32,000 nt of DNA from Pseudomonas aeruginosa (lineage in GTDB: Bacteria > Pseudomonadota > Gammaproteobacteria > Pseudomonadales > Pseudomonadaceae), in the NCBI RefSeq assembly GCF_001457615.1, contig NZ_LN831024.1, positions 360,001 to 392,000 of the forward strand. Reading direction: 5' to 3'. The notes under the pieces were generated by a model, which saw only the letters and a list, made by a program, of their open reading frames with translations, was not told the origin of the DNA and did not search any database. Position 1 is the first letter of the stretch. Each line of letters begins with the position of its first letter. Shown here in pieces: positions 2,352-24,419 of the stretch. Made by a program: the position numbers and the translations under genes.

Positions 2352-3023
2352 TCAGGCCTTGAGGGTCTTGACGCCGTCGGCGGTGCCGAGCAGCAGCAAG
2401 TCGGCCGGGCGGGCGGCGAACAAGCCGTTGGTGACCACGCCGACGATGGCGTTGATCTTCTCTTCCAGTTCCACCGGGCTGTCGATGCGCAGGTTGTGCA
2501 CGTCGAGGATGATATTGCCGTTGTCGGTCAGCACGCCTTCGCGGTAGACCGGATCGCCGCCGAGCTTCACCAGTTGGCGGGCGACGTGGCTGCGAGCCAT
2601 CGGGATGACCTCCACCGGCAGCGGGAACTGGCCGAGGATGGGCACCAGCTTGCTGGCATCGGCGATGCAGATGAAGGTCTTGGCCACCGCGGCGACGATC
2701 TTCTCGCGGGTCAGCGCGGCACCGCCGCCCTTGATCAGCTCCAGGCGCTCGTTGCTTTCGTCGGCGCCGTCGACGTAGAACTCCAGCTCGCTGACCGTGT
2801 TCAGCTCGTAGACCGGGATGCCATGCTCCTTCAGGCGCTTGGCGGTGGCCTCCGAACTGGCTACTGCGCCGTCGAACTCGGCCTTGTGGCGGGCCAGGGC
2901 ATCGATGAAGAAGTTGGCGGTGGAGCCTGTGCCGACGCCGACGATGCTCTTGCTGTCGAGGTGCGGAAGAATGTGGTCGACGGCGGCCTGTGCCACTGCC
3001 TGCTTGAGCTGATCCTGGTTCAT
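2352..3023 (-). CDS. rpiA: Ribose-5-phosphate isomerase A
   Basis: 223 aa with GVGTGST, DGADE and [11 protein letters not shown] motifs. Colinear with RpiA over its full length. Confidence 0.95.
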
Positions 3024-3144
3024 CCCGGGTGCCTGTCTGGTTGCCTGGCCGGCCGTCCCGGCGGCGCAGGCGGAGGGTGCGCGCGGCCGGGGCGGCCCGG
3101 CGGGTTTCCGGCACGTCCTGTGCCGCTGCGATACGAAGGGACGA

Positions 3145-3150
3145 ATTATA
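3145..3150 (-). promoter_or_regulatory. Perfect TATAAT hexamer facing rpiA
   Basis: The minus strand reads CGCTATAATTCG in the 257-bp rpiA/ilvA divergent spacer, 122 nt upstream of the rpiA ATG. The -35 is weak (CAAGAC at 18 bp). Confidence 0.3.
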
Positions 3151-3280
3151 GCGGCCTGGCGTCCTCCGGTCTTGCCCGGATAACCGGCAGTCGCGGTGTT
3201 TTCCTGCGGCGCGCCGGTAGTCCGCCCGGCGGGCCTGGAGTAGACTCCGGGCTTCCGTGAAGTCCGCCGAACCGCCTCCG

Positions 3281-4795
3281 ATGCTCGAACAATACGTCAA
3301 GAAGATCCTCACCTCGCGCGTCTACGACGTCGCGGTGGAAACGCCCCTGCAACCCGCCCGCCAGTTGTCCGAACGCCTCGGCAACCAGGTCCTGCTCAAG
3401 CGCGAGGACCTGCAGCCGGTGTTTTCCTTCAAGATCCGCGGCGCCTACAACAAGGTCGCGCAGCTCACCGAGGAGGAGAAGGCCCGCGGGGTGATCGCCG
3501 CCTCGGCCGGCAACCACGCCCAGGGCCTGGCCCTGGCGGCCAAGCGGCAGGGGATCAGGGCGGTCATCGTGATGCCCAAGACCACCCCCGAGATCAAGGT
3601 CCAGGCGGTGCGCGCCCACGGCGCCAAGGCGGTGCTGCACGGCGACGCCTTCCCCGAGGCGCTGGCCCACGCGCTGAAGCTGGTCGACGAGAAGGGCTAC
3701 ACCTTCGTCCATCCCTACGACGATCCGGACACCATCGCCGGCCAGGGCACCGTGGCCATGGAGATCCTCCGCCAGCAGCCCGGCCGCCTCGATGCGATCT
3801 TCGTCCCGGTGGGCGGTGGCGGACTGGTCGCCGGCATCGCCGCCTACGTCAAGTACCTGCGTCCGGAGATCAAGGTGATCGGCGTCGAGCCGGACGAGTC
3901 GAACTGCCTGCAGGCGGCCATGGCCGCCGGCGAGCGGGTGGTGCTGGGCCAGGTCGGGCTGTTCGCCGACGGCGTGGCGGTGGCGCAGATCGGCCAGCAC
4001 ACCTTCGACATCTGCAAGGACCACGTCGACGAAGTGATCACCGTCAGCACCGACGAGATCTGTGCGGCGATCAAGGACATCTACGACGACACCCGCTCGA
4101 TCACCGAGCCGGCCGGCGCGCTGGCGGTGGCCGGGATCAAGAAGTACGTCGAGCGCGAGCGCGCCGAGGGGCAGACCCTGGTGGCGATCGACTCCGGCGC
4201 CAACGTCAACTTCGATCGCCTGCGGCATGTCGCCGAACGCGCCGAACTGGGCGAGCGCCGCGAAGCGATCATCGCGGTGACCATTCCCGAGCGGCCGGGC
4301 AGCTTCAAGGCCTTCTGCGAGGCGGTCGGCAAGCGCCAGATCACCGAGTTCAACTATCGCTACCACAGCGGCAGCGAGGCGCACATCTTCGTCGGCGTGC
4401 AGACCCACCCGGAGAACGACCCGCGCGAGGCGCTGGTGGCCTATCTGCGCGAGAAGGGCTTCCCGGTCCTCGACCTGACCGACAACGAACTGGCCAAGCT
4501 GCACATCCGCCACATGGTTGGCGGCCATGCGGTGAAAGTCAGCGACGAGATGGTGTTCCGCTTCGAATTCCCCGAGCGGCCCGGCGCGCTGTTCAACTTC
4601 CTCACCAAGCTCGGCGGGCGCTGGAACATCTCGATGTTCCACTACCGCAACCATGGCGCGGCCGACGGCCGGGTGGTGGCCGGGTTGCAGGTGCCGGAAG
4701 ACGAGCGCCACCTGATCCCGCAGACCCTGGAGGCGATCGGCTATCCGTACTGGGACGAGACCGCCAACCCGGCCTACCAGCTGTTCCTCGGCTGA
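3281..4795 (+). CDS. ilvA: Biosynthetic threonine ammonia-lyase (threonine deaminase)
   Basis: PLP-lysine motif [17 protein letters not shown] and GGGGL, plus two C-terminal ACT-like regulatory repeats ([10 protein letters not shown]...). Colinear with E. coli IlvA. The start is ambiguous: ATG 3281 gives 504 aa and is my preference, GTG 3257 gives 512 aa. Neither has a good SD. Confidence 0.93.
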
Positions 4796-4870
4796 CCCGC
4801 GGCGGCTCGCCGACACGGGCTGCTAAGCTTCACGGGCAGGTGATCTCCTTCCTCGGGAACTGAGCCCGCC

Positions 4871-4893
4871 CCCGGCCCCTCAAACGGGCCGGG
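4871..4893 (+). terminator. GC hairpin downstream of ilvA
   Basis: CCCGGCCC-ctcaaac-GGGCCGGG (8-bp perfect stem), 76 nt after the ilvA stop. No U-tract. Confidence 0.3.
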
Positions 4894-4914
4894 AACACGG
4901 ACAAGGATGCGCTG

Positions 4915-5382
4915 ATGGAACATTTTATCCAGATCAAGATTCTCCACGGAGTCGCCACCGTGCTGCTGTTCGGCGGCCTGCTCGGCCTGGCGTTCTACGC
5001 CTGGCGCAGCTGGCGGACGGGCGACGCGGCTCGGGTCGCGCGCGGTTTCAAGCGGGTCCGCCTGATCGGCTGGCCGCTGCTGGGGCTCAGCCTGCTGGCC
5101 CTGCCGGTCAGCGGCTGGTGGCTGGTGCACCTGGCCGGCTGGCCGTTGGGCCAGAGCTGGCTGCTGTTCGGCGCCTGCCTCTATCTGCTCGGCTGCATCT
5201 TCTGGCTGGTCCTCGCCGGCCGCCTGGCGCGGGTCCAGCACCAGGCCGGCGCCGCCGAGACGGCGGGGGCCGCGCTGGGCGAGCAGGCCCTGCGCGAGAT
5301 CAAGGTGGGCCTGGTCATGGCCCTGCTCGGTGCGGCCAGCTTCATCGCGGTGGCGGTACTGATGGTCAGCAAGCCGCTCTGA
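4915..5382 (+). CDS. Small 4-TM integral membrane protein (DUF2269-like by memory), paralog 1
   Basis: 155 aa with four hydrophobic segments and AAGGA 8 nt upstream of the ATG. Clear paralog of 6701..7168: same length, K8/L10/H11, PxSG..xVHxAGWxLxQxWLL centred on H72, and a C-terminal MVxKP. Confidence 0.7.
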   Translation: MEHFIQIKILHGVATVLLFGGLLGLAFYAWRSWRTGDAARVARGFKRVRLIGWPLLGLSLLALPVSGWWLVHLAGWPLGQSWLLFGACLYLLGCIFWLVLAGRLARVQHQAGAAETAGAALGEQALREIKVGLVMALLGAASFIAVAVLMVSKPL

Positions 5383-15925: not shown

Positions 15926-16720
15926 ATGAAACAGTACCTCGACCTGATGCGCCACGTGCGCGAGCACGGCACCTTCAAGAGCGACCGCACCGGCACCGGC
16001 ACCTATAGCGTGTTCGGCCACCAGATGCGCTTCGACCTGGCCGCGGGCTTCCCCCTGGTGACCACCAAGAAGTGCCACCTCAAGTCGATCGTCCACGAGC
16101 TGCTGTGGTTCCTCAAGGGCTCCACCAATATCGCCTACCTCAAGGAGCACGGCGTCTCGATCTGGGACGAATGGGCCGACGAGAACGGCGACCTCGGCCC
16201 GGTGTATGGCTACCAGTGGCGCTCCTGGCCGGCGCCGGACGGCCGCCACATCGACCAGATCGCCAACCTGATGGCGATGCTGAAGAAGAATCCGGACTCG
16301 CGCCGGCTGATCGTCTCCGCCTGGAACCCGGCGCTGATCGACGAGATGGCCCTGCCGCCCTGCCACGCGCTGTTCCAGTTCTACGTCGCCGACGGCAAGC
16401 TCAGCTGCCAGCTCTACCAACGTTCGGCGGACATCTTCCTCGGCGTACCCTTCAATATCGCCAGCTATGCCCTGCTGACCCTGATGGTGGCGCAGGTCGC
16501 CGGCCTGCAGCCGGGCGAGTTCATCTGGACCGGCGGCGATTGCCACCTGTACGCCAACCACCTGGAGCAGGCCGACCTGCAGCTGACCCGCGAGCCGCTG
16601 CCGTTGCCGAGCATGAAGCTGAATCCCGAGGTGAAGGATCTGTTCGACTTTCGCTTCGAGGACTTCGAGCTGGTCGGCTACGAGGCCCATCCGCACATCA
16701 AGGCACCGGTCGCGGTCTGA
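15926..16720 (+). CDS. thyA: Thymidylate synthase (ThyA type)
   Basis: 264 aa from the internal ATG 15926: [11 protein letters not shown].... Catalytic Cys lies in [12 protein letters not shown], with DRTGTGT and the C-terminal IKAPVAV. Confidence 0.97.
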
Positions 16721-16727
16721 CCCTTCG

Positions 16728-16746
16728 GCGGAGCCGTCGGCTCCGC
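16728..16746. terminator. GC hairpin between convergent thyA and the methyltransferase gene
   Basis: GCGGAGCC-gtc-GGCTCCGC (8-bp perfect stem). There is no U-tract on either strand. It fills the 26-nt gap between the two stop codons. Confidence 0.3.
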
Positions 16747-17544
16747 TCAACCGAACAGGCGACGGTACCAGGGAAGCGCGCGCCAGTCCCGCAAAGCCCG
16801 CTCCGCATCTTCTGCGCGTTGCAGCGCCTGTTCCAGGGCCTGCTCCAGCGGAGCGACCGGATGGCTCATGGCATGGCCATGGCAGAGCTGGAAGTCGTCC
16901 AGCAGGTTCGGCGGTAGCGCGAAGGCGCCTTCCAGGCGGGCCTGTTCCTCCGCCAGGTAATAGCCGTTGAGGCCGTCGAAGTGGACGAAACGGTAGCCCG
17001 CGGCGAGCAGCGGCGCTTTCCACTCGGGGTCGTGGTCGAATGGAGTTTCCGCGAGGATCAGCCACGGGCGCCAGCGGTTCAGGTCGAGGCCGCGGAGCAC
17101 CGCGCCTTCCAGCCCTTCGACGTCGATCTTGAGGAAGTGGATCGGCCCTTCGACATGGGCCGCGCAGATCGCGTCCAGGGTGCTGACCTTCACTTCGCGC
17201 GGGGTGGCCGTGCAGCCCTCGGCCTGGCGCTGGCGGGTTAGCTCGGGGTCCAGGGTGGAGAGACCCGAGGCGGCCATCTCGTAGAGCGTGGCGCGGCCTT
17301 CGCGCTCGCCAATGGCGAGGTTCAGGTTGAGGTCTTCCGGCCGTTCCCGCTCCAGCTCGCGGTGCAGGTGGGGCAGCGGTTCGATGTTGATGCCGCGCCA
17401 GCCGCGCTCGTAGAACGCCAGGGTGACCGAGTCGATCCGCGGGTGGTTGGCGCCGACGTCGATGTAGAACCCCCTGGGGAAGAGTTTCAGGGCCCGCCAG
17501 AGTCGGACGTCTTCCAGGTTCTGCGCGTAGGAAACGAAGGGCAT
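16747..17544 (-). CDS. FkbM-family SAM-dependent methyltransferase
   Basis: 265 aa. YIDVGANHP (glycine-rich SAM loop) and FLKIDVEGLEGAVLRG are the two signature blocks I associate with FkbM/Methyltransf_21. AAGAGG SD lies 7 nt upstream. Confidence 0.7.
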   Translation of the reverse strand: MPFVSYAQNLEDVRLWRALKLFPRGFYIDVGANHPRIDSVTLAFYERGWRGINIEPLPHLHRELERERPEDLNLNLAIGEREGRATLYEMAASGLSTLDPELTRQRQAEGCTATPREVKVSTLDAICAAHVEGPIHFLKIDVEGLEGAVLRGLDLNRWRPWLILAETPFDHDPEWKAPLLAAGYRFVHFDGLNGYYLAEEQARLEGAFALPPNLLDDFQLCHGHAMSHPVAPLEQALEQALQRAEDAERALRDWRALPWYRRLFG

Positions 17545-17578
17545 GGGCCTACCTCTTGGGCGATCGTCGCCCAGTCTG

Positions 17579-18958
17579 TCATTCCCCGCGCCCGCTCTCC
17601 AGCAATTCGGCCAGCGCGTCGATCTGTTCCTGGCGGTCGCTGCCGCCCACCCGCCTGCCGTTCAGCGACGACCACTCCGGATGCGCGCGCGCCTTGCGCA
17701 GCGCTTCCGGCAGCTTGCCTTCGCGCCACTGCTTGTCCTCCGGGGTTTCCAGGCGGATCGCCTCGACCGCCGCGTGGCCGCGCGTTTGCAGGGCTGCCAG
17801 GAGCTGCCGTTGGCGCAGCGCGAGCAAGCGCAGCACGGCGTCGTTGACGGTCAGCTCGCGGGCGCCCTTGAGCTTGCCGAGCAGGCGCGAGCCGTAGTGG
17901 CCGACGGTCTGCCAGGCGCCGCCGGCGAGGGCACCGAGGGCGGCGGCGGCGCCAAGGGTGACGCCGCCCACCAGCAGGTCGATGCCGGCGCCGGCCGCGG
18001 CACCGGCCGCAACCCCGCCGCCGAGGCGGATACCGAGTTGGCGCAGGGTCTCCGGATTGAACAGATCGTCGCCCCAGCGGCCGTCGAGCAGCGGCAGGTC
18101 GGCGGCGCGGGCGTCGTCCCTGGCGAAGGCGTAGAGCCGCAGCAACGCTTCCACGCAGGCCTGCTCGCGCTTGCGCACCTGCTGGTGCAGGTCGCGGGTG
18201 GCTTCCTGCACGGCGCTTTCGCCGCCGGGCACCAGGCGCCGGCAGGCGGCGACGTCGACCAGCAATTCGGCGATCAGCCGTTGCCCGGCGCGCAGGCGCG
18301 CGGCGGCCTGGGTCTCATGGTCGGCGATCAGCCGGTCGAGTTGCGGCCGGGCGCGCTCCAGCAGCAGCGCCAGGCTCTCGTAGAGGCGCCGTTCGCCGTC
18401 CAGCGGCGGCGCCACGCTGTCGAAACGCACCAGGGCGTGCAGGCCCAGGCGAGCGAGGGCGGCGCGCCACTCCTCCTCGCGATGCTGCGGGCTGGCGACA
18501 AAGTTCAGCACCGGCAGCAGCGGCCGGCCGCAGCCGGCGAGCACCGCCAGTTCGTCGCGATACTTGGCCAGCACCGGTTCGCGGGCGTCGATCACGTAGA
18601 GCCCGGCGTCGGAGGCGAGCAACTGGCGGACCACCTTGGCTTCCTGTTCGAAACGCCCGCGCGCTTCGTTGCTGTCCAGCAACCGCGCCATGCGTTCCGG
18701 GCCATCGAGACGCTCGCCGGGGCGCTCCAGGGCGTCCAGGTAGTCGAGCAGGGCGATGGCGTCTTCCAGGCCGGGCGTGTCGTAGAGTTCCAGCAGCGCT
18801 TCGCCGTCCACCGACAGCCTGGCGCCCTCGACGTGGCGGGTGGTGCTGGGGCGATGGGAGACTTCGCCGAATCCGCGGTCGCGGGTCAGGGTGCGCAGCA
18901 GCGAGGTCTTGCCGGTATTGGTGTGGCCGACCACGGCCAGGATCAGCGGCTCAGTCAT
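17579..18958 (-). CDS. Membrane-anchored P-loop GTPase (HSR1/MMR-type G domain + DUF3482-like C-terminal region by memory)
   Basis: The internal ATG 18958 gives 459 aa: MTEPLILAVVGHTNTGKTSLL (G1), STTRH (G2), LYDTPG (G3). A glycine-rich double hydrophobic segment, LGGGVAAGAAAGAGIDLLVGGVTLGAAAALGALAGGAW, is present. The ATG overlaps the upstream stop by 8 nt (ATGACTGA). Confidence 0.8.
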   Translation of the reverse strand: MTEPLILAVVGHTNTGKTSLLRTLTRDRGFGEVSHRPSTTRHVEGARLSVDGEALLELYDTPGLEDAIALLDYLDALERPGERLDGPERMARLLDSNEARGRFEQEAKVVRQLLASDAGLYVIDAREPVLAKYRDELAVLAGCGRPLLPVLNFVASPQHREEEWRAALARLGLHALVRFDSVAPPLDGERRLYESLALLLERARPQLDRLIADHETQAAARLRAGQRLIAELLVDVAACRRLVPGGESAVQEATRDLHQQVRKREQACVEALLRLYAFARDDARAADLPLLDGRWGDDLFNPETLRQLGIRLGGGVAAGAAAGAGIDLLVGGVTLGAAAALGALAGGAWQTVGHYGSRLLGKLKGARELTVNDAVLRLLALRQRQLLAALQTRGHAAVEAIRLETPEDKQWREGKLPEALRKARAHPEWSSLNGRRVGGSDRQEQIDALAELLESGRGE

Positions 18959-20336
18959 GGCCGGTCTCCAGCCAGGCCAGCGGCGAGGTCTCGCCGTGCG
19001 GCAGTTGCAGGCGTTCCAGGGCGGCGTGCCAGTCACCCAGGCGGTCGCTGTCGAGCGCTTCGCCGGGCGGAGCCTGGAGCAGCCAGATGCGGGTGCTGGC
19101 GGCGCAGCGGGCGAGTTCGCCGAGCAGTGCCAGGGTGCCGCGGTCCGGCGAGCGACGCGGGTCGCAGGCGATGGCCAGGCGCGCCGGCGGGTAGCGGGTC
19201 AGTTGTTCGAGCAGGCGACGGCGCTGCTGGCCGTCGTCGAGGATGCCGGCGTCGGCGACGCCTTCGGCGAGCTTCGGCGGCCAGGGCCGGCGATCGTCCA
19301 GCTCCACCGCCACCAGCACCGCTCCGGCGGCTTCCTGGCCGGACTGGCCGCCCTGCGGCTCCGGCAGCCAGTCCGGTGCCGCGTCGCTGACGCCGAGGCG
19401 TTCGCTGGCCGGCATCAAGCGTTCGCGCAGCAGGCTGTAGCCTGGGTCGTCGAGGTCCAGGTCGAGGTGGGCCAGGCCGCGTTTCCAGCGCCACAGGCAG
19501 AGCAGACCGAGCAGCGCGCGCGGCAGGACCCCATAGACCAGCAGTACGCCTACCAGCCAGCCGGCCCAGGCGTGCCGTGCGGCTTCGCTGGCCAGGGCGG
19601 CGTCGCCGCTGGCGCGGATCAGCTCGGCGTCCGGCAACGGGAAGCCAAGCAACGCCGGCAGGGCGCCGAGCGCCTGGGTAAGGGCGATGAAGGTATCGCT
19701 GCCGAGAATGGTGGTTTCCCAGACGAAACCGTAGCGGCGGGTCGCCAGCAGGCCGAGGAGCATGGCCAGCGCGGTCAGCAGGCCGAGCAGCCAGAGCCCG
19801 TGGACCAGCGCGCCGAGGCCCCAGCGCGCCAGCCGGCGCCGGCCGAGCAGGACCAGTAGCGCCGGCGCCAGGTGCGCGGCGCGGGCATCGCGCGCCAGCT
19901 TGCCGCTGAGCCACAGCCAGAGCCGGCCGAGCGCGCCCGCGGCCTCGCCGCCGGCGAGCAGGCCGAGGGCCCAGCCGAGCAGGGTCAGCAGGTGCAGGCC
20001 GAGTAGGCTGGCCAGCGCCCAGAACACGTTGACCGGGCGCTGGCCATCGCCGAGCGCGGCGAAGGCCAGTCCGGCGCCGCTGGCCAGGGCCAGCACCAGC
20101 AGCAGGGCCAGCGCCAGCCGCGAACCCTGGCGCCAGGTCCGCTGGGCGTCGAGCAGGCCCTCGCGGCGGCCCAGCCAGTGGGCGCGGGTGAGAATACGGC
20201 GCGGCAGGGAACCGCCCTGGGCCAGCGCCTGGCGAACCGCCTCGCTGTCTTCCAGCGGACCGGCCTGCTCCTCGCGCAGGCGAACGGCCTCGGTCAGCCA
20301 GAGGGCGTCGAGGCCGGGATGCGTCGTGTGACTCAA
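18951..20336 (-). CDS. Polytopic membrane protein of unknown function (DUF2868-like by memory)
   Basis: 461 aa. TTG start at 20336-20334 with GGAGG 4 nt upstream. There are at least six hydrophobic segments in residues ~75-290, then a ~170-aa soluble C-terminal domain. Confidence 0.7.
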   Translation of the reverse strand: MSHTTHPGLDALWLTEAVRLREEQAGPLEDSEAVRQALAQGGSLPRRILTRAHWLGRREGLLDAQRTWRQGSRLALALLLVLALASGAGLAFAALGDGQRPVNVFWALASLLGLHLLTLLGWALGLLAGGEAAGALGRLWLWLSGKLARDARAAHLAPALLVLLGRRRLARWGLGALVHGLWLLGLLTALAMLLGLLATRRYGFVWETTILGSDTFIALTQALGALPALLGFPLPDAELIRASGDAALASEAARHAWAGWLVGVLLVYGVLPRALLGLLCLWRWKRGLAHLDLDLDDPGYSLLRERLMPASERLGVSDAAPDWLPEPQGGQSGQEAAGAVLVAVELDDRRPWPPKLAEGVADAGILDDGQQRRRLLEQLTRYPPARLAIACDPRRSPDRGTLALLGELARCAASTRIWLLQAPPGEALDSDRLGDWHAALERLQLPHGETSPLAWLETGHD

Positions 20337-20527
20337 GTCACCTCCTGTGTCGATTTCCCTGCCGAGCGTGAATCGTGCCCGGCCAACGGCGTCTGATCAG
20401 CGCCAAACATAGCAAAAAGCGCCCCGGCGGCTCATGCTGGCTTGCCAGCCGGCTGGCGGCGGGGTGTGGGGTTTTGACTGGCGCCGTGGCGAAAGCGTTC
20501 GGCGCCGGTAGCGAGAGGAACACTGAG

Positions 20528-20890
20528 ATGAAGGTAGTACGCCGATACCCCCTGGCGCTGTTGCTGGGGATGGCGGGCGCGCTGGCCGACGAGTTGCCCG
20601 ATGGCTCCTTGCTGCAACGCTATGGCGTGCAGGCCGACCAGTTGCCGACCCTGGCGGCGGATCCGCCGTCGCGCAAGGAGGAGAAGGAAACGCCGTCGCG
20701 CTTCCGGGTGGAGCCGGAGCAGCCCTTGGTGACCTTTGGCGTCAAGGACCACAAGGGCATGGAACCCACTGGCAACCCGTCGATCGACGCCATGCACGAG
20801 CGCGATCGGCGGATCTGCCGGAACATCAGGCGGCAGGCACTGGAGAAAGGCAAGGCACAGCCCTTCGACGGCTACATCGAGTGTCCATGA
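20528..20890 (+). CDS. Small secreted hypothetical protein
   Basis: 120 aa from the internal ATG 20528. Signal peptide MKVVRRYPLALLLGMAGALA/DE. The mature part is charged and low in complexity, with two C-terminal Cys (RRICRN...YIECP). I recognise no homolog. Confidence 0.55.
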   Translation: MKVVRRYPLALLLGMAGALADELPDGSLLQRYGVQADQLPTLAADPPSRKEEKETPSRFRVEPEQPLVTFGVKDHKGMEPTGNPSIDAMHERDRRICRNIRRQALEKGKAQPFDGYIECP

Positions 20891-20918
20891 GGCCGGCGCC
20901 CGCGTACGAGCGCCGGTC
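20891..20918. terminator. GC hairpin between the convergent small secreted-protein gene and glpQ
   Basis: GGCCGGCGC-ccgcgtacga-GCGCCGGTC forms 9 pairs including one G-U. No U-tract. Confidence 0.3.
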
Positions 20919-20926
20919 GGGCTGCG

Positions 20927-22078
20927 TCAGCGCTGCTCGCGCAGGCGCACGGCGACGTCCGGCTGGTCGCTGAACAGGCCGTCGATGCCGGCGTCGAGGT
21001 AGGCCCTGATCTCGCCGGCCAGGTCGCCGCGCGACTGTGGGTTGCCGTCGGCGCTGCGGAACTCCGCCGGAAGGAAGCTGTTTTCCGCGCGGAAGGTGTA
21101 GGGATGCACCTTCAGCCCGGCGGCGTGGGCGTCGCCGACGAAGCGGGTCGGCTGGCCGAGGTTGCCGTTGGCATCGCGGGGAATCACGTAGCTCTTGTCC
21201 GGACCGACCCCGTAGGCGTAGCGCGCCACCTGGCGCAGGCCCTTGGCGGTGGCCATCTCGGCGTAGGTCAGGCTGCCGCCGCTGGCCTGCTGGTCGTAGG
21301 GCTGGCCGCTGCCGTAGAGCTGGACCAGGCGGATGCCGGTGAGGCGCTTGAGTTCCTTCAGGTTGTTCACCTCGAAGGACTGGATGAATACCGGCGCGCG
21401 CGGACCGAGGTAGCCGTTGCGGTGCAGGGTCTTCACCAGCGGGCGTTCCATGGCCAGGCCGAGGCGCTGGAAGTGGGTGCCGTGCTTGATCTCGGGGTAC
21501 AGGCCGATGGTGCGTTGCTGGCTGATCTGCAGGCTTTTCACCAGGTCGATGATCTCCTGCAGGGTGGGGATCTCGAAGGTGCCGTCCAGGCGCGCATTGC
21601 CCGGGCGGATCGTGGGGATGCGCTCGATGGCGCGCAGGGTCTTCAGTTCGGCGAGGGTGAAGTCTTCGCTGAACCAGCCGGTGAGTTCCACTCCGTCGAC
21701 TTTCTGCGTGCGCTTGCGGTCGGCGAATTCCGGGTGCTGGGCGACATCGGTGGTCAGGCCCAGCTCGTTGTCGTGGCGGGCGACCAGCTTGCCGTCGCGG
21801 GTCATCACCAGGTCCGGCTCGACGTAGTCGGCGCCCATCATCACCGCCAGGGCGTAGGCGCCCAGGGTGTGTTCCGGTACGTAACCGCTGGCGCCACGGT
21901 GGGCGATGACCAGCGGCGAGCGTTCGTCGCTGGCCGGGTGGCGAACGGAGGCCTGGCCCTGGGCCCAGTCGATGGCGCGTTGTACGTTGCCGGTGTCGGC
22001 GTGGGCGGCGCTGGCCAGGCCAGCGGCGAGCATCAGGCAGGCGGCGCCGAGGTGGCGGCGCAGGAAGGCTGGTTGCAT
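20927..22078 (-). CDS. glpQ: Periplasmic glycerophosphodiester phosphodiesterase
   Basis: 383 aa from the internal ATG 22078 (GAGGA upstream). Signal peptide MQPAFLRRHLGAACLMLAAGLASAAHA. GDPD motifs: VIAHRGASGYVPEHT, YVEPDLVMTRDG, YPEIK. Confidence 0.9.
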   Translation of the reverse strand: MQPAFLRRHLGAACLMLAAGLASAAHADTGNVQRAIDWAQGQASVRHPASDERSPLVIAHRGASGYVPEHTLGAYALAVMMGADYVEPDLVMTRDGKLVARHDNELGLTTDVAQHPEFADRKRTQKVDGVELTGWFSEDFTLAELKTLRAIERIPTIRPGNARLDGTFEIPTLQEIIDLVKSLQISQQRTIGLYPEIKHGTHFQRLGLAMERPLVKTLHRNGYLGPRAPVFIQSFEVNNLKELKRLTGIRLVQLYGSGQPYDQQASGGSLTYAEMATAKGLRQVARYAYGVGPDKSYVIPRDANGNLGQPTRFVGDAHAAGLKVHPYTFRAENSFLPAEFRSADGNPQSRGDLAGEIRAYLDAGIDGLFSDQPDVAVRLREQR

Positions 22079-22287
22079 GACGGGTCCTCGTCGGCGGTTC
22101 GGGAGTGTTCCAGTCCAGCAGATTGACGCAGCCAGGTGATACTTCTTTGCCCGTTTCGCGACATTCCCGTGACAATCGCCGCCAGCGTGACGACGTCGGC
22201 GTTTTCCCGGCCAATCCAACGAAAGGGGCGGACGGCCGGGGCAGGGTATAGGGTGACGGCGCTCGCATAACAATAAGAGGATCGGTG

Positions 22288-23382
22288 ATGGCTTCCGCGC
22301 AACCTGCCTCCGCGTTTCCCTGCCTGTCGTTGCAACTGGCCTGCCTGTTGCTGGGCGCCTGGCTGGCCTTCGATGCCCACGGCGGCGGCCAGGCCGTGGC
22401 GCCGCCGGCCCGTGTCGAAGCGCGTGTGCCGACGGCCGCTACCGATGACTGGGGACGCCAGCCGGACAGCCTGATGAGCGCCGTGCCGCCGCGCACGCTG
22501 GAGGCGAGCGTCGGCGCCCGCGGCTCGGGATCGGCGAGTTCGCGACTGTGGATCGCCGATACCGACTTCCGCCTGCACGACGACATCGGTTTCTTCATCC
22601 AGCGCATGCTGATCCGCATGGAGCCGACTCGTCCCGGCGCGCCCTTGTCGCTCGACGATCCGACGGCGATGGTGGCGCGGATCCAGGCCGGCGAGATATT
22701 CGTCAGCGACGCCACCCTGGCGACCCTGCTCAACCAGGACCTCGCTGCGTCCCGCGCGGCCGTGCGCAACCTCAGTATGAACACCCGCAAGGACGGCCAG
22801 GAAGTGCGTGGCGAGTTGTTGCGCAAGGGGCGCTGGCGGCCGCTGCGGATGCTCACCGAGATCGAGCTGAGCGGTCCGCTGGAGGTGACCCTGGTACCCC
22901 GGCGGATCTTCGTCGACGGGGTCGAGGTCACTTCGTCGCTGGCGGCGGCCTCGATCGAGATGTCCGAGGTGCTGAAGCTGAAGACCCGGCACATGGAACT
23001 GGTCGGCAACCGCATCCGCGTCGACCTCGACGGTTTGTTCCCGCCGCCGCGCCTGGACTTCCGCGTCAGTCGCCTGGCCCTGGCCGACGGCGGCATGCAA
23101 CTCGCCCTCGGCGACTCCCTGGCCGACCTGCAATGGCCGGCATTACGGGCGCCGGACAGCTACATGTTCATCGAGGGCGGCGATATCAAGATGGCGCGCA
23201 CCGTGCTGGTCAAGGCCTATGCCCTGTTCACCAGCCTCAGCCCGGGGCAGCCGCTGCTGTTCAATCTCTACGACTACCGGCGGCAACTGCAGAACGGCGT
23301 GATCCGCCTGCGCGAGGACGGCATGGTGCAGATCGCCGTGTCGCCGGTGAAGGCGCCGGCGCCGCTGGAGGCACGGCTGTGA
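22288..23382 (+). CDS. Hypothetical exported or membrane-anchored protein, paralog A
   Basis: 364 aa with AAGAGGA 6 nt upstream of ATG 22288. Hydrophobic N-terminus (CLSLQLACLLLGAWLAF). Paralogous to the next gene along most of its length. Confidence 0.7.
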   Translation: MASAQPASAFPCLSLQLACLLLGAWLAFDAHGGGQAVAPPARVEARVPTAATDDWGRQPDSLMSAVPPRTLEASVGARGSGSASSRLWIADTDFRLHDDIGFFIQRMLIRMEPTRPGAPLSLDDPTAMVARIQAGEIFVSDATLATLLNQDLAASRAAVRNLSMNTRKDGQEVRGELLRKGRWRPLRMLTEIELSGPLEVTLVPRRIFVDGVEVTSSLAAASIEMSEVLKLKTRHMELVGNRIRVDLDGLFPPPRLDFRVSRLALADGGMQLALGDSLADLQWPALRAPDSYMFIEGGDIKMARTVLVKAYALFTSLSPGQPLLFNLYDYRRQLQNGVIRLREDGMVQIAVSPVKAPAPLEARL

Positions 23383-24419
23383 GCCGGCGTCCGTGGGGCG
23401 TACTGCTTGGCTGTTGCCTGTTGGCGGCCAGCGCGGCCCAGGCCGAAAGCGCCATCGACCGGCAGCAGCGCGAACTGGCCCTGCTGCGCGAGGGCTGGTA
23501 CCGGCAGGTCCCGCCGGCGCCGGTGCCGCTGCCCATGCGTACGGCCGGGCCGGCGGATTCCGGCCAGGATGGCGTCGGCATACTGCTGCGCAACGTGGAC
23601 ATGTACCTGCGCGGCAACATCGGTTTCCACGTGCCCGAGGTGAAGGGCTGGCTGGTGCCGAACCGGGCCGGCCAGCCGGTGGACTTCGACCGCCCGCAGG
23701 ACATGCATTTCCAGGTGATGGAGGGTGAGGTGCTGCTCAGCCCGCGGCAGCTGGCCAACCTGTTCAACGAGCACATCCTCGCCTACGACGGGACCATGTT
23801 GAAGGACTTCCGCATGAGCAGTGCGGCGGGACGCCTGGAGGTGGAGGGGCGGGTGCGTCCGCTCGGCGTAGGGCCCTGGCTGCCGCTGCGGCTGGGCGGC
23901 GGCGTGGAGGTGGACGCGGCCAGCGGCGCGCTGGTCTATCGGCCCGACCAGTTGAAGGTGATCGGTCTGCCGCTGTACGGGGCGATGAGCCTGGTCGGTC
24001 TGCCGATGTCGGCGCTGGTCAGCCTCGATCGGCCGGGGGCGAGCCTGGTCGGCAGCGCCATGCGCCTGGACTACCGCAAGGTCTTCCCGCTGCTGGGCAT
24101 CGATGGCCACGTACAGGAGGCCTGGCTCGACGACCAGGGGCTGCACCTGCGTTTCTCCCAGGCGCCCGGCCAGCCGTCGCCGGTGTTCAGCCCGCCGGCC
24201 GCGGCGGGCCCATCCTTCCTCTGGCTACAGTCGGGCGACCTGAAGATCTTCGAAATCCTCATCACCTACGCCCAGGTGCTGCTGAAGACCGAGACCCCGG
24301 ACCAGGTGCTGACCTTCAACCTGCAGGACTACCGCAAGGTGCTGGCGACCGGCACCACCCAGGTCAACGAGGATGGCACCTTCTTCATGCAGGTGCCGCC
24401 GTATGCCAATCCCTTGTAG
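23379..24419 (+). CDS. Hypothetical secreted protein (possibly a lipoprotein), paralog B
   Basis: GTG 23379 overlaps the TGA of the upstream gene (GTGA), with GGAGG 8 nt upstream. 346 aa. Signal peptide (M)SRRPWGVLLGCCLLAASAAQA/ES. LLGC could alternatively be a lipobox. Confidence 0.7.
   Translation: MSRRPWGVLLGCCLLAASAAQAESAIDRQQRELALLREGWYRQVPPAPVPLPMRTAGPADSGQDGVGILLRNVDMYLRGNIGFHVPEVKGWLVPNRAGQPVDFDRPQDMHFQVMEGEVLLSPRQLANLFNEHILAYDGTMLKDFRMSSAAGRLEVEGRVRPLGVGPWLPLRLGGGVEVDAASGALVYRPDQLKVIGLPLYGAMSLVGLPMSALVSLDRPGASLVGSAMRLDYRKVFPLLGIDGHVQEAWLDDQGLHLRFSQAPGQPSPVFSPPAAAGPSFLWLQSGDLKIFEILITYAQVLLKTETPDQVLTFNLQDYRKVLATGTTQVNEDGTFFMQVPPYANPL

Follow-up and report, generated by a model that had tools for sequence, protein, structure and literature searches.

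The window analysed here is a stretch of 32,000 nucleotides (nt) from Pseudomonas aeruginosa (contig NZ_LN831024.1 of assembly GCF_001457615.1, positions 360,001 to 392,000). It contains three consecutive minus-strand genes encoding a DUF2868 membrane protein, a GTPase with a DUF3482 region, and an FkbM-family methyltransferase. The DUF2868 gene (18951..20336; 461 amino acids, aa) starts at TTG, 4 nt downstream of a GGAGG Shine-Dalgarno (SD) sequence at 20341-20345. The GTPase gene (17579..18958; 459 aa) starts at ATG, and the methyltransferase gene (16747..17544; 265 aa) completes the cluster. An earlier sequence-only reading of the window had described these three open reading frames (ORFs), including the TTG start with its GGAGG, and all of them were recovered. 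Its domain calls were likewise borne out by Pfam and NCBIfam hidden Markov models, each above its curated cut-off. The first protein matched DUF2868 (PF11067; E value 1e-107; 360.6 bits against a cut-off of 26.8; aa 147-444), while the second matched both MMR_HSR1 (2e-12; 47.4 bits against 21.9) and DUF3482 (PF11981; 7e-115; 383.9 bits against 29.2; aa 165-450). The third resembles the FkbM-family methyltransferases in scoring above both of their cut-offs, Pfam Methyltransf_21 (7e-26; 91.8 bits against 22.7) and TIGR01444 (9e-25; 87.8 bits against 37.7).

Products of identical length (461, 459 and 265 aa) are called in public P. aeruginosa genomes, and the genes correspond to PA0345 (DUF2868), PA0344 (GTPase) and PA0343 (FkbM). 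The 50,498 Da “PA0344 hypothetical protein” reported previously (PMC3240657) agrees with the PA0344 assignment. P. aeruginosa assemblies run from folA through two unknown genes, glpQ, a small ORF, DUF2868, GTPase/DUF3482, FkbM, thyA and lgt to genes of the TauE, TANGO2 and GGDEF types and then ptsP. The window thus represents the P. aeruginosa core region ptsP–lgt–thyA–(PA0343-45)–glpQ–folA.

The junctions between the genes also matched the earlier description. The DUF2868 and GTPase genes share an 8-nt stop/start overlap, ATGACTGA (18951..18958, minus strand). The ATG at 18958 was preferred over a longer GTG-initiated ORF because of the database products, the family alignment and the conservation of this stop/start overlap. 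Between the GTPase and FkbM genes lies a 34-nt spacer (17545..17578, minus strand) containing a small hairpin, GGGCGAcgaTCGCCC (17558-17572), and an AAGAGG SD sequence (17552-17557). This hairpin has no U-tract and is not clearly more stable than shuffled sequences (z -1.5; 12 of 200 shuffles fold equally well); it is therefore not a terminator. A scan for promoters and terminators found no promoter-like or terminator-like site inside the three-gene cluster, as the operon proposed earlier would have it, and from this lack of a predicted internal site the co-transcription of the three genes appears plausible.

Conservation of the gene pair

Gene neighbourhoods were compared across 80 genomes of other Pseudomonadaceae, whose GTPases are 71-85% identical, and 80 metagenomic loci picked around distant relatives. 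Single look-ups were added for relatives at 35-37% identity, for long DUF2868 variants and for Neisseria gonorrhoeae. The DUF2868 gene was found directly upstream of the GTPase gene and on the same strand in all 80 of the other Pseudomonadaceae loci, and directly upstream in 76 of the 78 metagenome and Logan loci whose upstream flank was long enough to judge. The same arrangement was observed in three further look-up or record loci, as well as in one extra copy of a look-up locus. Overall, the pair is present in 159 of the 161 non-aeruginosa loci with a sufficiently long upstream flank, at identities as low as approximately 25-35%. Among the 163 loci with both genes, which include four from P. 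aeruginosa, a stop/start overlap was present in 130. The overlap measured 8 nt in 110 loci, 4 nt in 16 and another length in 4; the non-overlapping pairs were separated by gaps of 1-21 nt (9 loci) or 45-237 nt (24 loci). DUF2868 and the GTPase are thus an almost obligate gene pair, usually overlapping. The overlap indicates that the two genes are usually translationally coupled, and the fixed stoichiometry proposed earlier is probably correct, given this adjacency and overlap.

Only two true exceptions were identified, both in Neisseriaceae-like metagenome contigs without DUF2868 (L149 and L164). Relative to the gonococcal orthologue, which is encoded with a DUF2868 partner, their GTPases lack the C-terminal end, and this truncation looks like decay following partner loss. 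In N. gonorrhoeae NZ_CP119142.1 (locus L170), the pair occupies positions 2599-3870 and 4001-5320. Clustering of the flanking ORFs of the 23 most divergent loci revealed no third conserved neighbour. In the plasmid collection, the pair had no match other than two 2.17-Mb gonococcal chromosomes. These two chromosomes, each of which carries the pair, are mis-filed as plasmids in PLSDB. The scan of viral contigs returned at least one relative, one being among the matches listed. The pair therefore appears essentially absent from plasmids and, among the matches listed, from viral contigs.

An exhaustive phmmer search of 1.84 billion cluster representatives gave 1267 matches at E ≤ 1e-3, of which 259 reached E ≤ 1e-30; most of the proteins were 440-490 aa long. 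A profile search intended to widen the GTPase alignment returned only Pseudomonas sequences. Named members belong to the beta- and gamma-proteobacteria: Pseudomonadaceae, Alcaligenaceae (Advenella, Pollutimonas, Orrella, Castellaniella and Pelistega), Thauera, Xylophilus, Ideonella, Neisseria and Thiodictyon (PMC6413534). Conservation of the pair thus extends beyond the Pseudomonas lineage, N. gonorrhoeae included, as one would expect of the dedicated membrane GTPase machine suggested by the sequence-only reading. Additionally, the exact GTPase sequence is indexed in approximately 20,000 blocks of the assembly collection.

The methyltransferase gene behaves differently. No FkbM homologue was found within ±8 kb of the pair in any non-aeruginosa locus, neither in the 80 Pseudomonadaceae genomes nor in the metagenomic loci, and gene 3 is linked to the GTPase pair in P. 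aeruginosa only. In several Pseudomonas species, the GTPase and thyA genes are convergent, their stop codons lying 8-100 nt apart, at the position where P. aeruginosa has the FkbM gene. Because the GTPase gene meets thyA directly in these relatives, the FkbM gene was a later arrival at this junction, specific to the lineage of P. aeruginosa. Its GC content at third codon positions (GC3) is 0.853, compared with 0.89-0.93 for the neighbouring genes, and its deletion has been reported in P. aeruginosa strain B420 (PMC5167064). The closest plasmid homologue (50% identity) lies on plasmid pMP-R124 of P. fluorescens R124 (L171, 5001-5831), as a lone gene between partition/toxin-antitoxin genes and a type IV secretion region, which points to spread of this FkbM subfamily by mobile elements. 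Judged by synteny, the FkbM gene is a later, P. aeruginosa-specific insertion, an unrelated passenger outside the conserved module, which may well be co-transcribed with the pair by read-through. By the same comparison, the functional unit is two genes, not three.

Architecture of the two proteins

The GTPase was aligned with diverse members of its family (45 sequences, 33-55% identity) and modelled with AlphaFold2 (AF2; predicted local distance difference test, pLDDT, 86.4; predicted template modelling score, pTM, 0.83). The G domain (aa 1-185; 18404..18958, minus strand) contains several columns that are invariant across the 45 members. The G1 motif, GHTNTGKT (18905-18928, minus strand), follows the consensus GHTNxGKT with G11, H12, N14, G16, K17 and T18 invariant. 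G2 corresponds to the nearly invariant T39/T40. G3 reads DTPG (18770-18781, minus strand; D60, P62 and G63 invariant) and is followed by a hydrophobic residue (Leu), a feature shared with Era, Der, MnmE and FeoB. After switch II, a helical insert of 50 aa (aa 67-116) interrupts the domain. The position of G4 is taken by a non-canonical N152-F-V-A (18494-18505, minus strand). N152 is invariant, yet the family consensus L-N152-F-x offers no conserved Lys or Asp and does not conform to NKxD. Further invariant columns were D124, F278, G319 and G342, and near-invariant residues included E65, E106, R126, K132, D180, G323, D327, G332, G336, G346, R393, H395 and R442.

The nearest PDB sequences were Der/EngA, Era, MnmE and EngB, all matching over the G domain only. 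In K+-dependent GTPases such as MnmE, FeoB and EngA, the first Asn of the signature GxxNxGK[ST] contacts K+, and a second Asn, five residues after the P-loop Lys, stabilises the K-loop (PMC3466195). The first of these corresponds to the invariant N14, and K+ dependence of the GTPase is possible.

Beyond the G domain, the AF2 model shows a helical stalk (aa 186-300; 18059..18403, minus strand), with long helices at 201-237 and 247-275 at pLDDT >90. It is followed by a Gly/Ala-rich helical hairpin (aa 309-350; 17909..18034, minus strand) marked by the conserved residues G319, G323, D327, G332, G336, G342 and G346. A helix-turn-helix predicted at 302-363 spans this segment, although the hairpin has pLDDT <50 in the monomer. 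Its conservation (2.5-2.8 bits) is on par with that of the G domain and compares with approximately 1.7 bits for the stalk. Pfam Gly-zipper_Omp/OmpA/YMGG models gave sub-threshold matches to five of nine family hairpins (E values 0.0087-1.9), reaching at most 16.4 bits against cut-offs of 25-29, so that this is a resemblance only. The C-terminal domain (aa 351-459; 17582..17908, minus strand) contains a conserved RGHA motif (R393, H395), ARxHPxWS and R442, and its α/β region 367-459 was modelled with confidence.

Foldseek searches of the PDB with the GTPase model returned matches to the G domain only (IF2, Era and EngB). Long but poor alignments were obtained to GIMAP7, GIMAP2 and EHD2, all of them NTPases related to septins or dynamins and associated with membranes. 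No structural similarity was detected past the G domain, with a template modelling score (TM-score) to the query of at most 0.31. Pfam searches with the isolated N-terminal, C-terminal and DUF3482 segments revealed no additional families.

The DUF2868 protein was also modelled with AF2, using database homologues (pLDDT 90.8; pTM 0.77). Its layout comprises N-terminal cytoplasmic helices (aa 1-70), four transmembrane (TM) helices (aa 71-284), a disordered linker of about 50 aa (aa 285-338) and a C-terminal domain. In the combined AF2 and hydropathy analysis, the N-terminal helical region covers 9-58 and the long hydrophobic helices lie at 61-95, 104-127, 170-199 and 251-289, while the basic loop 128-170 holds two amphipathic helices; here the disordered linker spans 308-338 and the α/β domain 340-461. 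From the charge distribution, we infer that both termini and the 128-170 loop are cytoplasmic and that the 200-256 loop is periplasmic. This predicted periplasmic TM3–TM4 loop (aa 200-256; 19569..19739, minus strand) carries the motif RRYxFxWETTxL...LGxLPxxLGFxxP and a hydrophobic helix, with Y202, W206, T208, T209, L211, G231 and P235 invariant or nearly so. Together with the TM helices (G87, W122, H179, W182 and R273), it forms the most conserved part of the protein; R273 is invariant and located inside TM4. The cytoplasmic loop T/S-P397-D398-R399-G400 and W436 also rank among the most conserved positions.

The C-terminal domain (aa 339-461; 18954..19322, minus strand) adopts the order beta-beta-alpha-beta-alpha-beta-alpha in the AF2 model and includes the invariant loop TPDRG (aa 396-400; 19137-19151, minus strand). 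A soluble C-terminal domain of about 170 aa with an alpha/beta fold had been proposed for this region. The fold agrees with the model, and the domain itself is shorter, about 120 aa (339-461) after the disordered linker. Sequence and profile searches of DUF2868 against the PDB found nothing. In Foldseek, all credible PDB matches aligned to the C-terminal domain, and none was a transporter or channel matching the TM region. The best were the G domains of EngB/YsxC and Der (probability 0.97-0.99; E values 0.15-0.7; TM-score to target approximately 0.4).

An hhalign comparison aligned DUF2868 residues ~385-447 with β4, α3, β5 and α4 of the G domain of its own partner (probability 44-46%; P 2e-4). 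The score was 30, whereas shuffling the alignment columns 30 times never gave more than 17.5. In this alignment, the consensus “rLLivCDarqTPDRG...v.L...R..W...L...Gl” is matched with “LYVIDaRE...LPVLNF....W...La..gLH”. A reasonable candidate identity for the C-terminal domain of DUF2868 is a degenerate G-like domain that lacks a P-loop.

Natural variants of DUF2868 were also observed. Proteins of approximately 710 aa (P0440, P0442 and P0445; L167, L168 and L169) have an extra C-terminal region of about 250 aa with its own Gly/Ala-rich hydrophobic stretch, and the GTPase gene still comes next, with a 4-nt overlap. Homology between this extension and the DUF3482 hairpin region was not detected (hhalign probability 4%). 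The P. aeruginosa record P0282 (825 aa) is a natural in-frame fusion, in which a deletion has joined DUF2868 residues 1-357 to the GTPase by way of an upstream extension of the GTPase ORF. This deletion removes the whole C-terminal alpha/beta domain of DUF2868, which can therefore be lost in at least one isolate.

Flanking regions and neighbouring genes

The divergent intergenic region upstream of the DUF2868 gene (20337..20527, minus strand) contains the SD sequence, a -10-like site and a near-palindrome. The candidate -10-like TATGTT lies inside TTTTTGCTATGTTTGG (20403-20418), and the near-palindrome is GGCGCTGATCAGACGCC (20388-20404). A conserved GGTTAT(G/C)CT approximately 38 nt before the DUF2868 start was found in 64 of the 80 other Pseudomonas loci (L005-L084), where it probably serves as a -10 box. 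By contrast, P. aeruginosa and L011 have TTTTGCTATG(T/G)T approximately 70 nt upstream, beside the near-palindrome. A consensus scan of this region found no sigma-70 site, and the promoter assigned here is a putative one. Regular-expression searches for AlgU, sigma-54 and RpoH motifs upstream of the gene gave no match in the 80 Pseudomonas loci.

At the other end of the cluster, a GC-rich hairpin, GCGGAGCCgacGGCTCCGC (16728..16746), is located between the convergent FkbM and thyA genes. It has an 8-bp stem, begins right after the FkbM stop codon, and folds at -21.6 kcal/mol (z -2.2). The terminator scan did not call it, as there is no U-tract; it is likely the shared transcript end of FkbM and thyA. 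In related Pseudomonas, differing palindromes resembling repetitive extragenic palindromic (REP) elements were observed at the GTPase/thyA junction. A scan of 16000-21500 with Rfam identified no RNA family.

Three neighbouring genes were also recorded. Divergent from the DUF2868 gene, a 120-aa ORF (PA0346-like; 20528-20890, plus strand) has a signal-peptide-like N terminus and no Pfam family, and a homologue (44% identity) at the equivalent position was found in only one other Pseudomonas locus (L011). Upstream of folA, the PA0348/PA0349-like genes (22285-23382 and 23379-24419, plus strand) encode proteins of 365 and 346 aa and overlap by 4 nt. Their products are mutual paralogues (29% identity, E value 4e-33) with hydrophobic N termini and no Pfam match at E ≤ 0.1, and represent a further uncharacterised tandem pair.

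Proposed function and comparison with known systems

The earlier idea of a dedicated membrane GTPase machine is a reasonable inference for the conserved pair. Taken as a whole, structural claims included, we tentatively favour a two-protein inner-membrane NTPase complex whose output is local remodelling or maintenance of the inner membrane, while giving it somewhat less than an even chance. In this model, the two proteins would form a stoichiometric complex in which DUF2868 anchors and regulates the GTPase. The tethered G-like domain of DUF2868, its N-terminal helices, or both would bind the G domain in a nucleotide-dependent manner. The G-like domain may be an ancient copy of the G domain of its partner, and D398/R399 may act at the GTPase active site. 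Within the membrane, the Gly-zipper hairpin would pack into the four-helix bundle, with R273 (TM4) and D327 (hairpin) as a candidate intramembrane ion pair. Binding and hydrolysis of nucleoside triphosphate (NTP) would in turn shift the positions of stalk and hairpin against the bundle.

Atlastin, mitofusin and the bacterial dynamin-like proteins share the order of G domain, helical stalk, membrane hairpin and C-terminal helices. Membrane remodelling or maintenance was ranked first because the parts of the GTPase follow this order. Inter-protein covariation was calculated as mutual information with average product correction (148 pairs, effective number approximately 52) and was dominated by phylogenetic signal. 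The top within-protein pairs were implausible as contacts, and a hint linking DUF2868 395/396 with GTPase residues 15, 127 and 133 was not relied on.

Several observations weigh against this interpretation. With respect to the nucleotide, the second Asn of the K+ signature is replaced by R22, a near-invariant Arg. Mutation of the G4 Asp is known to change base specificity (PMC3466195). On the sequence, base specificity is not fixed by a G4 without Asp, and “GTPase” serves here as the name of a family. In addition, a small, Era-like G domain is not of the dynamin type, and there was no Dynamin_N match at E ≤ 0.01.

The glycine-zipper membrane hairpin attributed to the GTPase in the sequence-only reading holds up as a conserved Gly/Ala-rich hairpin, less so as an established membrane segment. 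It consists of 50% Gly+Ala and is moderately hydrophobic (mean Kyte-Doolittle hydropathy approximately 1.0), and PA0344 was identified on a two-dimensional gel of soluble proteins (PMC3240657). SlyB and YfgH have been described as transmembrane glycine-zipper proteins (bioRxiv 10.64898/2026.06.08.730324, 10.64898/2025.12.22.696046). Insertion of the GTPase hairpin is plausible because it is conserved and the two-helix glycine-zipper hairpins of SlyB and YfgH are membrane-embedded. The presence of PA0344 among soluble proteins would fit reversible or partner-dependent insertion.

On the DUF2868 side, the G-like assignment is weak (Foldseek E values of at least 0.15, hhalign probability <50%), and a disordered linker of about 50 aa would be hard to reconcile with force passing rigidly through the C-terminal domain. 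A transporter, gate or sensor would account at least equally well for the strongly conserved periplasmic loop and the intramembrane polar residues. Finally, in agreement with the earlier note that no experimental function was known, none was found for either family in the PDB, Pfam, NCBIfam, PADLOC or the literature searched. The literature mentions are limited to an in-silico annotation survey, two proteomics tables and two lists, one of phylogenetic markers and one of machine-learning features. Protein expression of pair members is known in two species. In P. aeruginosa, PA0344 is less abundant in a small-colony variant (PMC3240657), and in Thiodictyon, the abundance of a DUF2868 protein differed between light and dark (PMC6413534).

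The conserved periplasmic loop and the intramembrane polar residues are the reason why a FeoB-like gated conduit is the close second, although we regard it as unlikely in itself. Here the pair would be a GTP- or NTP-gated channel or transporter, a split FeoB-like system, in which the four TM helices and the hairpin, possibly oligomeric, form a conduit, with the Era/FeoB-like G domain and the tethered regulatory domain governing when it opens. Like that of FeoB, the G domain belongs to the K+-type class, with a hydrophobic residue after DxxG, the invariant Asn of GxxNxGKT and a weak FeoB_N match (0.0025). The TM helices and the TM3–TM4 loop are the best conserved parts of DUF2868, with H179, R273, E207, T208 and T209 invariant; the Gly-zipper hairpin contains a conserved Asp; and glycine zippers occur in pore-forming proteins, such as a type VII secretion system toxin (PMC12955049). 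Set against these features, FeoB_N stays below its cut-off and no FeoB_C or gate domain is present. A heterodimer would supply only six membrane helices, Foldseek gave no PDB transporter or channel for the TM region, and no substrate-related neighbour genes were found among the 23 most divergent loci.

Compared with the remodelling complex preferred above, a transmembrane signalling or assembly switch appears improbable. It would have the DUF2868 loop sense an envelope cue, with the GTPase acting as the output or as a tethered Era/Der-like factor; in the biogenesis variant, the membrane-tethered GTPase would act in ribosome or membrane-protein biogenesis. The sequence proximity of the G domain to the ribosome-assembly GTPases Der, Era and EngB, the conserved periplasmic motif and the reduction of PA0344 in the small-colony variant (PMC3240657) are consistent with such a switch. 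However, RNA-binding domains (KH or other) are lacking, as are effector and regulator domains, the gene neighbourhoods revealed no conserved regulatory gene, and the hairpin and stalk would be left unexplained.

The coupling to methylation put forward in the sequence-only reading, with the FkbM protein modifying a lipid or sugar handled by the GTPase pair, is very improbable and largely refuted by synteny. The tandem genes on one strand, the 34-nt gap between the last two and the lack of a predicted terminator or internal promoter favour such a three-gene machine. Against it stand the missing FkbM gene beside the pair in 80 of 80 other Pseudomonadaceae genomes and in every metagenomic locus, the thyA-converging GTPase of relatives, the B420 deletion, the lower GC3, and the lone plasmid homologue among maintenance genes. 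A role of the pair in defence against phages or mobile elements, in which the GTPase would be the sensor or effector in the manner of LeoA, is hardly credible, since weak PADLOC matches on the G domain (LeoA, 1e-8, aa 4-143; LeoBC, 0.003) are countered by the fixed chromosomal core position (thyA-lgt) in many Pseudomonas, the genus-wide presence of the pair, the restriction of plasmid matches to the two mis-filed gonococcal chromosomes, the single relative among the viral contig matches listed, and the lack of any PADLOC match for DUF2868 and FkbM. Defence-system and mobile-element readings were accordingly rejected.

A previously undescribed kind of bacterial membrane machine can also be envisaged, although we consider it a long shot. 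The Era-like NTPase and the G-like domain of its partner would form a heterodimer, joined within the membrane by the Gly-zipper hairpin and the four-helix bundle with the candidate R273-D327 ion pair. It would work as a GTP-powered transmembrane actuator for envelope maintenance, unlike dynamins and FeoB, with cytoplasmic nucleotide hydrolysis driving a conformational change that extends to the periplasmic YxFxWETT loop.

In summary, a genuine and conserved gene pair occurs in two major pathogens, and a concrete hypothesis for its structure is now available. The pair is a core-genome module of P. aeruginosa that is also found in N. gonorrhoeae, Alcaligenaceae, Thauera and purple sulfur bacteria, and both families exist in databases solely as domains of unknown function (DUFs), without a solved structure or a curated family name. 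At the same time, it is one of many uncharacterised DUF pairs; no expectation is overturned and no standing question is resolved. If it is a nucleotide-driven membrane device, it would be an Era-type addition to the few bacterial GTPases that remodel or gate membranes, and a tractable two-gene system for the coupling of a G domain to membrane helices. The analysis narrows the focus to two genes and to the key residues K17, N14, R22, N152 and D327 of the GTPase and R273, D398/R399 and the WETT loop of DUF2868.

Among known systems, Era, Der (EngA), EngB and MnmE of the TrmE-Era-EngA-YihA-septin-like superfamily provide the best sequence matches to the G domain. The GTPase shares with them intact G1, G2 and G3 motifs, the Leu after DxxG and the invariant first K+-binding Asn. 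It differs in having N-F-x-x at G4 in place of NKxD, Arg22 at the second signature Asn and the 50-aa insert, and in lacking a KH, other RNA-binding or tRNA-modification domain. In turn, these proteins have no counterpart to its stalk, hairpin, C-terminal domain and obligate membrane partner.

The dynamin-like proteins (BDLP, DynA, LeoA/B/C and IniA) and atlastin/mitofusin resemble the GTPase in their equal order of parts, in an operon with a partner, in the weak LeoA profile match and in the long Foldseek alignments to EHD2 and GIMAP. However, its G domain is small (approximately 185 aa with the insert) and Era-like, outside the dynamin family by Dynamin_N, and it is paired with a polytopic membrane protein in place of another dynamin-like one. 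For a dynamin-type stalk, AF2 predicts the long helices at 201-275 and a hairpin (302-363) at pLDDT <50, and Foldseek detected no similarity to a dynamin-like stalk.

FeoB is similar in that an Era-like, K+-type G domain would be functionally attached to a polytopic inner-membrane protein, with the weak FeoB_N similarity noted above (17.8 bits against a cut-off of 27; FeoB_C in neither protein). It differs in that the G and membrane domains are here separate polypeptides, with 4 (+2) helices. Lastly, the glycine-zipper hairpins of SlyB and YfgH share the Gly/Ala-rich helix-turn-helix and the GxxxG spacing. Those proteins are small outer-membrane lipoproteins without an NTPase, whereas the hairpin described here has a conserved Asp and forms part of a cytoplasmic GTPase of 459 aa.

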